Shown here in pieces: positions 6,863 through 53,924 of a DNA stretch of 64,000 nucleotides; within the stretch, counting starts at the first letter, position 1; every line of letters begins with the position of its first letter. The stretch is from Eledone cirrhosa. Taxonomy: Eukaryota. The notes beneath the pieces were generated by a model. That model had not been told where the DNA came from and searched no databases. It worked only from the letters and a program-made list of their open reading frames with translations. The stretch covers positions 21,831 through 85,830 of the forward strand of contig CAXHJY010001010.1 of the NCBI GenBank assembly GCA_964016885.1, written 5' to 3'. The translations under genes were made by a program, and so were the position numbers.

Positions 6863-7360
6863 TATGTATGTATATATACACATACTACTGTACGTCTGTA
6901 TACATATATGTATGTACGTATACATACTTATATTTAAGTAATAGCCGTACTAAGAGTGAGAAATGAAATTTCGTTTCATTTTTTTCCATTTATCGTTTTA
7001 GGTGCTCCCGGCCGATTAACTCTCTCGATATGCAAATTAGGTTGCACAGCCGTTAATATACATAAGGAAAGTATATACTTTCAGACGTTCAATCATCTGG
7101 CAGGAAGGTATACGGTGCTGACGATAGCTAATAAGCTTGAAACTAGTACATCGTTCATTTGTCAGTGTTGAACAAAAGGTCAACGATGGTTGCTAAACAC
7201 TGTACGGCTTAATTCGGGATGTTTGTTTACAAACAAACCGAGCATTATAATAAATGTTCGGTGAATCCATACGTACATATTTATATGTGTGCATGTATGT
7301 ATATATATACATACTACTGTACGTCTGTATACATATATGTATGTACATATACATACATAT
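6863..7360 (+). mobile_element. Non-coding HHR element, family A (about 429-bp monomer plus terminal redundancy)
   Basis: catactactgtacgtctgtatacatatatgtatgtac occurs at 6881 and 7310; internal HHR; homologous to the units at 22-26.7 kb. Confidence 0.8.
7112..7154 (+). ncRNA. Type I hammerhead ribozyme motif (family A)
   Basis: acggug-CUGACGA-uagcuaauaagcuu-GAAA-cuag-UA-caucgu; palindrome ACUAGU, GUA site. Confidence 0.85.
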
Positions 7361-10300
7361 ATATATATATATATAAATAAATATATATAAATGCACACAT
7401 ACATATCTGTCTATATGTGTGCCTGTATGGTGCTAATCATCTTAACAATGTATTGACATGATTTTGATATAATTTTAATCACTTTCCCTGAACATTTACC
7501 AACTTATGTTAGTCATTTCTATAACTCTAAATACAGTTACAATAATTGGTTCAATGCAACATTCTGAGATTCCCTCATTTCTTCTGAATATTTGGCGTGT
7601 TAATACTGTTGGATTACTTCCAGTTCAACTGTGATTTCCCACTATTTGGCAATGGCGTGGGACATAGCTTGAAGCAATAATCCAGGCAACTAAAACTAAA
7701 ATATCTTTCACTGAAGCAATAAAATTTATTGTTGTTCTCGTATAGTAAATTATAGGAATATCTGCATATTTTAGACATATGTGCATTTAACGATGTGATA
7801 TTACTCCAAATTTCCAGTTTCATATATATTTTGACACTGGAATTTTATTCTTTCCTTATTTAGTATATTCACATTGCAATATGGATAGCTGGATGGATGC
7901 CCGAAGTTTTCTAGCATCAAAATACAAGATGTTTACATCAGCCTCTCCTATCTGGATAGAATGTACATTAAAAATATTGTATGCAAAATGGAGGTGTGAT
8001 TTATACAATAATATGCATGGTATTTCTACTAAATATTTCATACTAGTCTGTTCAGAGTAATTTTATAAATGTTTAACCATTTGAAACTTTTACTTTGAAG
8101 ATCCATGATTTTGTTTAACAAATTTCAATTTTTTCTGATAATTATATGCTTAATTGTGTATTTGTTTGACTCTCTATTTCTCCCTCTCTCTCTTTCTTCA
8201 TGCCTCTCTTTCTCCATATCTCTCTCTCTTTGTGCATGTGTGTTTATGAGATTTTGTAAATTTACTATAATATTTCTTATGACTTTAAGCAACCAACTTA
8301 TGATGAATGCAATTAAGATGCATGGTGTCAATCTGTATTTAAATTACCACATATATTAGTATATGCTACAGTGTGTATATAATATTTTGGTCTTAATTTG
8401 TTAGCCATACATAAGTCACTTGTTGTTTTTTTTAAAATATTTTCTGCATTTTAATGTAGCATTTTAACTACAAACAACAACAAATTAATTAGCTCAAATA
8501 ATCCCAACCATGGTCAATACAGATTAGAAGTATATATATCAAAACAATATTTTTCAATGATTTATGTTCGAAATGAACAGATTAACCTTGGATTTTACCA
8601 TATTTGTTACCATAATTCTAATGAAAGATGTTGCCTATAATTTTCAAATAAACAAGAATTTGAAAGGATTAATTAATATAACTTTCTCATTATCTACATA
8701 ATTTATCAAGGCGTTTTACATAAAATGATGGAAGGACTTTAGATAAATATAAATACTTCAAAACAAATCACATTTTATAGTAGAATGAGAGGTGGTTTCA
8801 GATTGTTTTGGTGCCAGAAGGACTAAATTACTACTTCTAATTGATTGCAATACATGCATGATCTAATTAGCATTAGTAATACATCTGGTGAATAAAAAAA
8901 AACTGCATATGTGTTTCACACATATAAAGGACTTGTATACATGAATTCATGAAACTGTATCATCACCAAAACATATGTTTTTTAACAGAATTGAGTTTTG
9001 CTGAAGGGGTTATCTTTTTGTTTTGGCGCATGATGTCATCAACATATATTTATTTACAATAGACTCTTTAGTAACATCACAAACTCACCTAACATATTCA
9101 ATCATTTTCAGGTCTCTGTGTGTGTGCTGCAAATCCCAGTCAAGAGTGAGATTCAGTTATGTGTGTGGATTTGCATGCTTGATTGTTTAGTAAAAAATTG
9201 TTACTTACTTGTGTGTATATATATCATTCCGTGTAAACAATTCATCTGAAGTCTTATTTTTAAGAAACATATTTAAAATTAGAGGTTTTATCACTTAGTT
9301 CAATTATTTAAATATCATAACACAACCATTTATTGCATTTATAGATGGGATTCATTATTTAATGTATTGAAATATATATATGTATATAAGTCAGAGCTAA
9401 AAATATATGCTTGACGATCGGTTTATGTAATATATATTTGACATACCAGTTTATTTTCAATAATTGTTTTCCTTGGGATATTTTTCAAAATTCCTGACTT
9501 GAATTAAACTAAAATGTAATTTACATATTTTCAATAATGAAGCACATGCACATACGTTTCCTGCTTTGTCATATTTAAAATGGACAATTTTGAAAGGGTT
9601 AAAACTGAATATAAATATGCTTTAAATTTTCTTAACCAAAATAATAAAACCTCTATTTTGAAGCTGTTCTATTAGTATTTTTTTTAGCTATTCAAGAACT
9701 GACACCAAATATATATTTTTCTCTATGTATGGTATTTGAATGGTGAATCTTGATAATCACAATAGAATTGGTCCAGTGTTAATGCTTCTTTCTGTATATG
9801 AAGAAGATAAACATTTATGTCAATGTGTTTGTGTATGCATGTGTGTGATATAAGATTACATACCTTAAAATCAAATTTCTTATATAATATATTTATGATG
9901 ATGGTATCAACCCAAATCAAAGTAGAAATGTTGTTTAGTTAGACTAGTTGCAAGAAATTAGATATTTATTTCTAAACAAAGTGAGAGCGTGAGAAATAAT
10001 AATCTATACTATCATAAGGGCCATGCCTGTCAGTCCGTCTATCATGCTCTCTCTATATATAGAGATAAATAATACTCCATCCTCTCTCTAACTAACTAAA
10101 ATGTAATGTGCAGATAAACGAAAAGTATACGGAGTTTTTTTTTGGTGGGTGTGGTTATATGTATATATTTCTGTATGTCCTTCAACATATAGACAACACA
10201 ACACAGATTTTAAAATGGACTTTAACTATACTGAAATATTTTTTGTTATTGAGAGAGAAATACAGTGAGAAAGAGGGAATAGAGTTGTTGTTTGTGTGTT

Positions 10301-11121
10301 TCTGTATGTCTTTCAGCATATTGACAACACAACATTTCTTTTTCTTCTTCTTCACTCGCTTGTTGCTGAGAGGGTCGTGGGAGTAGATTCCTCAAACACT
10401 CCTTCCAGTGGATCCTGTCATAATCAACCATCTTCAACTGATCCAGCAGCATCCCAGAAGGGGGCAAACCTTGACGGTTGGAACCTGGAACATCACATCT
10501 CTTACATGCAAGGAACAGAGGAACTAGTGGAGGGGGCTAGTTGCTACCAAATTGATATAATCGGAAAAAGACAATGCAGCTCAAACTTTAAAAAAAACGT
10601 TCACTATAATGACAGGGAGAGAGAGACAGATATGTAAAGAGAGTTGTCACCACACTATGAGTTTTGAAAACACGAGAATTATAAGTGCAAGTTTGTCAAC
10701 ACATGTGGAAAAATGTGTGTCTCTGTATGCCCTAAGGGAAACTGGGATACAACTAGTAATAATAATAATAATGATAAAAACAATATCTTAACAATAGAGC
10801 AATTGGGGATCATATGGTTGTGAGAACCAACCAATACTAAACAAAATGGTACTGGAAAAGTGCTCTACAAAGAAAAGAAGTCTCAGCACAGCCTAGATAG
10901 ATCTTAGATAACACCTCACTTTCATAGAGTCTTTAATCTCTTGAGATTTACAAAATATCCCTCAGAATTATAAATTTATTGAAACAAAGTATGGAAAACA
11001 ACCTTTTCTTGAAACACAACAAAGGGATAACAAATTCAGAAGAAATCTTGATATGCAGAGGAATATTCCAGGGAGATTCGTGGTCTAGTAGTCAAGTCAG
11101 AAAGCTTGTGATTGGCATATT

Positions 11122-11955
11122 TTCATAGGTATATTTTAAACTTATAGCCTCGTTTAAATGATTTTTGTATGGTTGATTATGCTGATTGGGAGAAGAAATA
11201 CTGTATATAGTTTATCAAATGATTCTATGGACTTACTTTCTTATATATTGCACTGATAGTTGATTATTTAATTAATTAATTCGTCATTGAGCCACACCGT
11301 GAATGGTTGCCTAAAACATATATATATATATATCTATGGCTCTGTCTAGTTTGTGTATATACACTTTTAAATTTTATATACTCCCGTAAGGTTGAGTAAA
11401 ACTTTAGGCAGTATTCGGCTGCGCTTTCTGGCAACCAGCCTACTCGCTGACAGGCACCAATGACAAGCTTTCTTACTTGACCATTAGCCACGTGACAATT
11501 CTTAGCCATTTTGAATTCGTTTCTGGCGGTGAGCATTTAAGAAAAAATCTTTGTTCAATTGAGGTTGTCTCCTGATGATTTCGAAACTCGTTGATTTATC
11601 CAAGATCGGATATTTCCAAAAAGCGAATGAAACCTAGGCGGTAGAGGTATATTTAATGGTTTTGGTATGTTTATGTACACCTTTTCTTCTAACTTTGATT
11701 CTGTACCTAATTATATATGGTTAACTGTATGTCTAATCAATTTCTACAGGCTATCAGAAATATTAGGTAAATTTTCTGTGGCTGTGAATCGCGGATAAAA
11801 AGCTATCATTTATTTATCTATTATTCCTTCATAGGTATATTTTAAACTTATAGCCTCGTTTAAATGATTTTTTATATGGTTGATTATGCTGATTGGGAGA
11901 AGAAATACTGTATATATTTTATCTAATGATTCTATGGACTTACTTTCTTATATAT
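11122..11955. repeat. Non-coding unit bounded by ~125-bp direct repeats (period ~706 bp)
   Basis: ttcataggtatattttaaacttatagcc...ggacttactttcttatata at ~11122-11247 and ~11828-11955. Confidence 0.8.
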
Positions 11956-11968
11956 ATATATATATATT

Positions 11969-53076: not shown

Positions 53077-53121
53077 AATATTGCTGATGAGTTGTAACAA
53101 CAACGAAACTAGTTCAATATT
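53077..53121 (+). ncRNA. Family B hammerhead, unit 2
   Basis: Identical to unit 1. Confidence 0.9.
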
Positions 53122-53542
53122 CCTTGTCTGGCTTTGTGGAGAATAGAGGAAAGGTGTTTCCTCAAAAACCAGTATGACTCTAAAAACCGGTTTGTCTGTG
53201 TGTTTACATACAGAATAGCTGGATACTCACAGTAAAGTGACCAGTGAAAAACTTGGTACATCTACATATGTATACGTGTGTGTATTCATATGCATACTAG
53301 TATTTCAGTATACATATGTGGATGTACATTTTTAACTTAATTGTTTAAGCGTCAGTCATACAAAAGTGAGTTACAAACGAAACGAAATGTAATTTCGATT
53401 CGTTATTTGTTTTTATCGTCTCCGTTGAACCGGTACGTACTCACACTCTATGCAAATTAGTCTGCCCACTACTAATTTTCATAGAAAAAGCATATAACGA
53501 TATGTGCTTTTACGATTCTCCAGAAAGGCCGGAAGATAGGTA

Positions 53543-53587
53543 AATATTGCTGATGAGATGTAACAACAACGAAACTAGTTCAATATT
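53543..53587 (+). ncRNA. Family B hammerhead, unit 3
   Basis: One stem II mismatch (gaug for guug). Confidence 0.85.
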
Positions 53588-53924
53588 CCTTGTCTGGCTT
53601 TCTGGAGAATAGAGGAAAGGTGTTTCCTCAAAAACCAGTATGACTCTAAAAACCGGTTTGTCTGTGTGTTTACATACAGAATAGCTGGACACTCACAGTA
53701 AAGTGACCAGTGAAAAACTTGGTACATCTACATATGTATACGTGTGTGTATTCATATGCATACTAGTATTTCAGTATACATATGTGGATGTACATTTTTA
53801 ACTTAATTGTTTAAGCGTCAGTCATACAAAAGTGAGTTACAAACGAAACGAAATGTAATTTCGTTTCGTTATTTGTTTTTATATATATATATATATATAT
53901 ATATATATGTATATATATATATAT

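Follow-up and report, generated by a model that had tools for sequence, protein, structure and literature searches.

Two hammerhead-bearing repeat families in the window

A stretch of 64,000 nt from contig CAXHJY010001010.1 of Eledone cirrhosa (hereafter, the window) was analysed, and the 3.0 Gb genome was searched for related sequences. The window holds copies of two repeat families, A and B, built of tandem units with one type I hammerhead ribozyme each. A promoter-like block precedes the ribozyme, consisting of an octamer motif, TATGCAAATTAG, and a TATA-like box 41-43 nt further on (Table 1). We consider it likely that A and B are retrozymes in which this host-like block drives RNA synthesis by RNA polymerase II (Pol II), that the RNA cuts itself to give circles, and that Penelope-type enzymes copy it into (TA)n.

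The units measured 466 bp in B and 422-502 bp in A (five A loci measured). Their ends adjoin (TA)n, and there are no long terminal repeat (LTR) features. No open reading frame (ORF) of at least 120 aa was found within the units, except for frames crossing simple repeats into flanking elements. By these sequence features A and B fit the definition of non-LTR retrozymes, a class already described. In the genome, the shared hammerhead-core pattern had 38,388 matches (0 with the reversed pattern), and the octamer plus core pattern had 25,744 (3 in the control). A copies were 94-100% identical and B copies 94-100%, mostly 98-99% (best 40 candidates scored). The identity of the scored B copies points to recent amplification, and the age assigned to this lineage in the first-pass annotation of the window was not borne out. 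The term replicons, used there as well, was likewise not supported: the copies are built like retroposed insertions of the Penelope type, and nothing points to RNA-to-RNA replication.

Selection on the ribozyme, also proposed there, was supported by covariation of the hammerhead stems. Stems I and II were 96% and 82% paired, with two-sided changes in 9 of 11 pairs, a count from ten mutually related representative sequences and not a probability. Pairing of stem I was kept as described, apart from a G-U pair in the A copy at 6.9 kb (A6.9; other copies are named likewise). The B hammerhead had a folding z score of -4.7, and the B monomer was strongly structured. The Rfam model HH9 matched B with E values of 6e-6 to 2.5e-4, below its gathering score, and no match was listed for A. 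Rfam miRNA matches on TA-rich stretches were rejected, their scores being far under the gathering thresholds. Assembled contigs of four runs (three organism labels) overlapped parts of A and B, and are uninformative on starts, strand and level.

A and B had been called collinear homologues, and their shared blocks were indeed found in the proposed order in four A copies and three B units, as revealed by alignment and motif positions. By blastn they were 73% identical over 89 nt (E 5e-8). With the ribozyme removed, the local alignment score was 52, compared with 16.5 +/- 2.2 (maximum 25) in 1000 dinucleotide shuffles, and it was 57 with the octamer masked. The part 3' of the ribozyme aligned too, with a score of 53 against a shuffle mean of 17.9, in a stretch that is TA-rich and simple. 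The match between A and B depends neither on the ribozyme nor on the octamer. The first of the proposed blocks is present, but its fit in B needs a 1-nt gap and A6.9 deviates from it. A hammerhead had been expected in every A copy; the core of the 22-kb copy is broken and lacks GAAACTAGT. The distance between octamer and ribozyme, given as 85-90 nt, was confirmed for A (88 nt from octamer to CUGA), but is 100 nt in B. The A copies at 22, 24 and 26 kb exist, but they are a single insertion triplicated inside a 1,980-bp unit, and so A inserted twice independently in the window, and B once. The triplicated unit also holds an RTE-like 3' end and short hammerhead repeats.

Table 1 Coordinates of the A and B copies and of the minimal-hammerhead repeats in the window.
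Feature	Position	Strand	Details
A6.9 insertion	6862-7359	+	5'-truncated, about one unit; stops at 'short' 3' end in (TA)n
A6.9 octamer block and TATA-like box	7029-7078	+	octamer block 7029-7040; TATA-like box 7072-7078
A6.9 type I hammerhead	7102-7156	+	predicted cut after 7148 (GUA), from hammerhead consensus
Family A, copy 1 of 1,980-bp triplication	21985-22750	+	octamer 22403-22414; broken-core hammerhead 22476-22530
A24 inverted arm	24031-24260	-	5'-truncated; 'long' (tail) end against (TA)n
A tail, between the two 3' ends	24350-24411	+	GAAAT/ATTTC hairpin
A24 promoter-like block	24447-24496	+	octamer 24447-24458; TATA-like box 24490-24496; spacing 42, like host U3
A24 type I hammerhead	24520-24574	+	predicted start 24520-24522 (host TATA offsets); predicted cut after 24566
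Family A, copy 3	26011-26765	+	octamer 26424-26435; TATA 26467; hammerhead 26497-26551
Family B array	52438-53882	+	3.1 x 466 bp; stops at long (tail) end in (TA)n
B tail, between the two 3' ends	52878-52950	+	13-bp hairpin 52910-52938
B promoter-like block, unit 2	52983-53031	+	octamer 52983-52994; CATATAA 53025-53031, also 52517 and 53449
B type I hammerhead, unit 2	53049-53142	+	long helix I; core 53073-53123; predicted cut after 53114 (GUU)
Predicted cut-to-cut B monomer, candidate circle	53115-53580	+	466 nt; fold -153 kcal/mol, z -10.4
135-bp minimal-hammerhead repeats	23360-23490, 23625-23760, 25395-25530, 25655-25790, 27357-27490	-	

The other hammerhead cores of the B array lie at 52607-52657 and 53539-53589. 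Elsewhere in the genome, a B-type array of ~31 units closes with an inverted copy (G000:C1:5738328-5752442).

The octamer-TATA block resembles host small-RNA gene promoters

In A, the sequence TATATAC lies 42 nt after the octamer, and CATATAA takes the equivalent place in B. Host promoters with the same motif were found in genes for small nuclear RNAs (snRNAs) and related small RNAs. The octamer motif was located at -76 to -78 in five host promoters of the RNA polymerase III (Pol III) type, exactly in three and with a single mismatch in the other two. These promoters belong to two single U6 genes, a U6 array, MRP and the best U6atac gene. In U6, U6atac and MRP the TATA box (~-30) follows the octamer (~-77) by 46-48 nt. 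Left out were one U6-array copy with foreign upstream sequence, and four other U6 and nine U6atac matches without the motif in place. Many of these left-out matches were microsatellite-flanked and judged to be pseudogenes, and 10 of the 15 fetched U6 loci missed the start pattern. The U3 gene carries an octamer variant, ATGTAAAA, at -73/-74 in all eight loci, with TATA 42 nt on in the three that were modelled.

The other snRNA genes are built differently. None of 31 distinct U1, U2, U4 and U5 regions had an exact octamer within 300 bp upstream; they showed AATTAA near -90, YCART near -57 and a TATA-like stretch near -30. The RNase P gene has ATCAGT with TATA 32 nt later, and ends in T9; U6 and U6atac genes end in T6 or longer. 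A vertebrate-style distal octamer near -220 was found in none of the host U1 and U2 genes, which initially argued against a promoter, until U6, MRP, U6atac and U3 were examined. This comparison defines the host layouts of U6/MRP, U1/U2 and U3, which should help in building tools to express small RNAs.

The exact 12-mer TATGCAAATTAG is common to the A/B block and one host U6 gene. A two-block model was built from eight host promoters, its spacing range and the use of U3 having been chosen after A and B were seen. With it A24 scored 23.5, A2 25.8 and B 24.3, in the sense orientation relative to the ribozyme, and the host promoters scored 26.6-30.4; between 0 and 1 of 93,870 background positions reached the A/B level.

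An internal snRNA-type promoter driving the next tandem unit had been proposed from the octamer. The promoter reading is strengthened around the octamer, because host U6, U6atac, MRP and U3 promoters carry the motif. Two details changed: the conserved unit is the octamer together with the TATA-like box, and the predicted start falls at the ribozyme of the same unit. The 'palindromic hairpin' described earlier contains this TATA-like box.

Further families with the same layout

A pattern combining octamer and hammerhead core, and excluding the A/B letters, gave 171 genomic matches, compared with 16 for a permuted octamer. A variants made up 19 of the first 30 loci; the rest included two recurring families with proper stems, C and D. 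Letters outside the pattern recurred in 31 non-A matches, made up of 11 from the first 30 loci and 20 picked from the listing, with families repeating. These were T at -1 (26/31), A at +9 (25/31) and TATA at +41..51 (15/31); the respective controls were 4, 4 and 1 of 15.

C and D share the octamer-TATA layout, and their octamer lies at the same distance from the hammerhead. The octamer-like element occurs in tandem, in three copies in family C and often in two in D. With the offset as expected, the U1/U2/U5 core model matches C (p<=5e-5); it also matches one D copy. C also carries a TTTATC motif and a tail resembling those of A and B, which makes shared ancestry possible. In a family termed E, whose octamer is placed at that same distance, octamer and TATA are 47 nt apart, a Pol III-like spacing. 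E was not established as a real ribozyme family; a crude stem checker scored many D and E copies poorly.

Which polymerase?

T6 or T7 runs occur inside tandem A units, and the longest run in B is T5. Together with the U3-like spacing, the internal runs favour Pol II, by which A and B are likely transcribed, to judge from these motifs. Alternatively, the block could be a Pol III type-3 (U6-like) promoter, with T-runs in the tail stopping most transcripts and rare read-through feeding the circles. The 12-mer shared with a U6 gene and the 47-nt spacing of family E would suit such a promoter, as would the long B end, which lies at a T5 run with no longer run elsewhere in B. In humans, moreover, the TATA box is described as the dominant Pol III determinant (PMC3499247). 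However, the 41-43 nt spacing of A and B is like that of U3 (42) and unlike 46-48, and T6/T7 runs lie within tandem A monomers. Host U1, U2 and U5 genes also have a TATA-like stretch near -30. In Drosophila, Pol II and Pol III spacings are reported to differ by 4 bp, and the downstream box not to choose the polymerase (PMC4227766). We therefore judge Pol III transcription of A and B to be unlikely.

Conservation of the block, and the octamer hairpin

The octamer had been expected to be more conserved than its neighbours. Of 23 A sites selected solely by their ribozyme, with a further 10 being truncated, 18 had the exact octamer and the changes in the other five were singletons; in B it was exact in 9 of 9 sites. 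However, 34 of 124 windows of 12 nt were equally invariant, and the expectation holds for the octamer-to-TATA segment as a whole. In the 23 A sites, shared variants affected 8 of 50 columns of this segment, as against 35 of 86 flanking columns (Fisher p=0.004).

The octamer is also the 5' arm of a hairpin, overlooked in the first-pass annotation. It might thus be kept as RNA, as a hairpin arm or protein site in the circle, with transcription by host-gene read-through and an incidental promoter likeness. The octamer does pair with a downstream arm in both A and B, the B monomer is highly structured (z -10.4), and among A copies the bases 3' of the octamer are at least as invariant as the octamer itself. 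The hairpin was 64% paired, though, and covariation was limited to 1 of 11 pairs. Between A subfamilies the octamer stays unchanged, whereas the arm that it pairs with differs without compensation; in C and D the pairing fails. Subfamily A3 has lost the 3' arm of the TATA hairpin and kept the box and its spacing. Sparse covariation, the changing arm and the kept A3 box are more in keeping with an element acting as DNA than with an RNA stem. The block agrees with host promoters in motif, orientation and TATA spacing, and the octamer is tripled in family C. We consider a purely RNA-level role very improbable.

Insertion anatomy and the Penelope link

Most of 30 B loci (some overlapping) had tandem units joined to an inverted, 5'-truncated arm, the whole flanked by (TA)n. 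B ends fell into two classes ~70 nt apart, after and before the tail hairpin. A likewise had two, ~57 nt apart by blast end points, although the end-counting script detected few short A ends; inverted truncated arms were seen in A loci too. Tandem and inverted arms with a one-sided tail are known from Penelope-like elements (PMC8557442), whose tail has been explained by two internal reverse transcriptase (RT) starts (PMC11167929). Arms, tail and two end classes match this signature, from which we infer that A and B copies were probably pasted by Penelope-type enzymes. The fixed two-ended pattern gives structural support for Penelope mobilisation in an invertebrate. A rival view takes A and B for satellite-like remnants of a terminal repeat of Penelope, multiplied at the DNA level and sharing blocks by ancestry only. 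It would agree with long arrays of ~30 units and the DNA-level triplication at 22-27 kb, but is hardly credible given dispersed young copies, fixed 3' ends with variable 5' truncation, inversions and covarying ribozyme stems.

An intact RT+GIY-YIG family (774-784 aa) ends in (TA)n, and by its sequence is a candidate mobiliser, without a canonical hammerhead. As the parent of A and B the 784-aa family was rejected: it has no hammerhead and shares no ends with them. Neither hammerhead nor octamer was found within 900 bp downstream in any of 30 further GIY-YIG loci. In the window, 1338-3533 (-) is a broken copy of a young, abundant Penelope-like family with intact 774-784-aa frames elsewhere. The A6.9 insertion adjoins a Penelope-like fragment of the opposite strand. 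The terminal repeats of two Penelope-like fragments, 5890-6104 (-) and 15672-15930 (+), contain a hammerhead-like core, preceded by GCGCATGCGC and not by the octamer. We take GCGCATGCGC to be an NRF1-like site.

Two pseudogenes in the genome suggest that the same enzymes retropose snRNAs: one of U6atac joined to an inverted family C promoter region, and one of U6 joined to a short hammerhead repeat. Other U6 and U6atac pseudogenes lie in (TA)n without promoters.

Proposed mechanism

Under the retrozyme reading, transcription would initiate 30-32 nt after the TATA box, at the 5' edge of helix I. The host TATA offset of -30 to -32 places the predicted start at 24520-24522 in A, which are the first bases of the extended helix I in A24, and near 53056 in B. 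The transcript would read through the tail into the next unit, as it must if the element is to copy its own promoter. Cleavage at two ribozymes and ligation would then give a 420-500 nt circle containing the promoter; the minimal CUAG stem III suggests dimer-type cleavage. Upstream promoters are normally lost on retroposition, and tandem or circular permutation would preserve this one. A Penelope RT/GIY-YIG protein would prime internally at two sites 57-70 nt apart, and copying round the circle or along a multimer would yield tandem and inverted arms. For cleavage, circles and rolling reverse transcription, this scheme adopts the published retrozyme model (PMC7229834).

Several points weigh against this reading. 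The two-block model was fitted in part after the fact, as noted above. The U1/U2/U5 core model (TCAGT 26-27 nt before a TATA-like stretch) fails on A and B (p 0.13-0.64), and the RNase P gene lacks the octamer. Beyond the octamer block, the likeness of A to U3 is marginal (16-19 of 41 positions identical, p 0.01-0.06), and B shows none (8 of 41). In B the octamer hairpin folds strongly (z -6.1). C and D, which were found via the octamer, may share ancestry with A and B. An autonomous element with the A/B ends was not found in 40 + 30 Penelope loci, a small sample of >10,000 candidates. Finally, 1 of 9 predicted Xenopus retrozymes is reported to have cut in vitro (bioRxiv 10.64898/2026.07.22.740005).

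More tentatively, several retrozyme lineages may have captured the upstream promoter grammar of host small-RNA genes (U3-, U1/U2- and U6-like), kept it mobile by circular permutation, and seeded >25,000 POU/TATA modules through the genome; we put this forward as possible rather than probable. If true, and together with newt satellite 2, snRNA-promoter capture would be a recurring, convergent route to constitutive transcription of animal retrozymes. Tens of thousands of octamer-TATA modules could also influence adjacent genes.

Relation to known systems

A and B resemble the metazoan non-LTR retrozymes (Cervera & de la Pena 2020, PMC7229834) in their AT-rich tandem units with one type I hammerhead, the absence of an ORF, very high copy number, a self-paired monomer and the proposed mobilisation by Penelope-like elements. 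They differ in that circles were demonstrated there, whereas those of A and B are predicted. In the text of that article, 'promoter' is used only for T7, and 'octopus' and 'cephalopod' do not occur. The main text of an octopus repeat annotation likewise does not contain 'ribozyme' (PMC13282606). How animal retrozymes are transcribed in all tissues was left open in the retrozyme literature examined, the newt case aside. For A and B, the 60-bp block, the predicted start base and the polymerase call make transcription directly testable.

The promoter of newt satellite 2, studied by Coats, Zhang and Epstein in 1994, reportedly consists of an octamer and a proximal element. Satellite 2 is, like A and B, a hammerhead tandem repeat, and its snRNA promoter is described as internal and used by Pol II (PMC2220036). 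Unlike it, A and B have a compact block that mirrors the host U6/U3 layout: a TATA-like box is present, and the octamer lies ~72 nt upstream of the predicted start.

Penelope-like elements share tandem and inverted 5'-truncated arms, a one-sided tail, microsatellite targets and a type I hammerhead, as described in PMC8557442, PMC11167929 and bioRxiv 10.64898/2026.07.22.740005. The tail of A and B, however, is 57-70 nt long compared with 30-40 nt, they have no ORF, and no end-sharing parent was found among the loci searched. Short interspersed elements (SINEs) and TRIMp3 elements are likewise non-autonomous retroelements that borrow a small-RNA gene promoter. They are described as using gene-internal tRNA, 5S or 7SL boxes, whereas A and B would keep an upstream-type promoter via the tandem or circular unit (PMC10886601).

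Literature searches, with subscription journals mostly outside their scope, returned nothing on the octamer-snRNA promoter of newt satellite 2 or on a mollusc U6 octamer-TATA promoter. Among the matches listed, none on octopus hammerhead ribozymes concerned the A/B case, and none joined a retrozyme to an snRNA promoter or SNAPc. The non-LTR retrozyme class and the newt snRNA-promoter precedent are already known; the compact host-like block of A and B is well supported and appears to be a new variant.

Other features of the window

The 135-bp repeats listed in Table 1 carry a minimal hammerhead and are flanked by (TA)n; the 1,980-bp triplication contains them in pairs. A Penelope-like fragment at 19521-20357 lies between two hammerhead-like motifs, 18306-18342 (-) and 21240-21276 (+), which are similar and inverted relative to each other. 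An (ATG)n-tailed SINE-like element flanks the B array on both sides, its two copies being inverted, at 52321-52437 (+) and ~53925-54035 (-).

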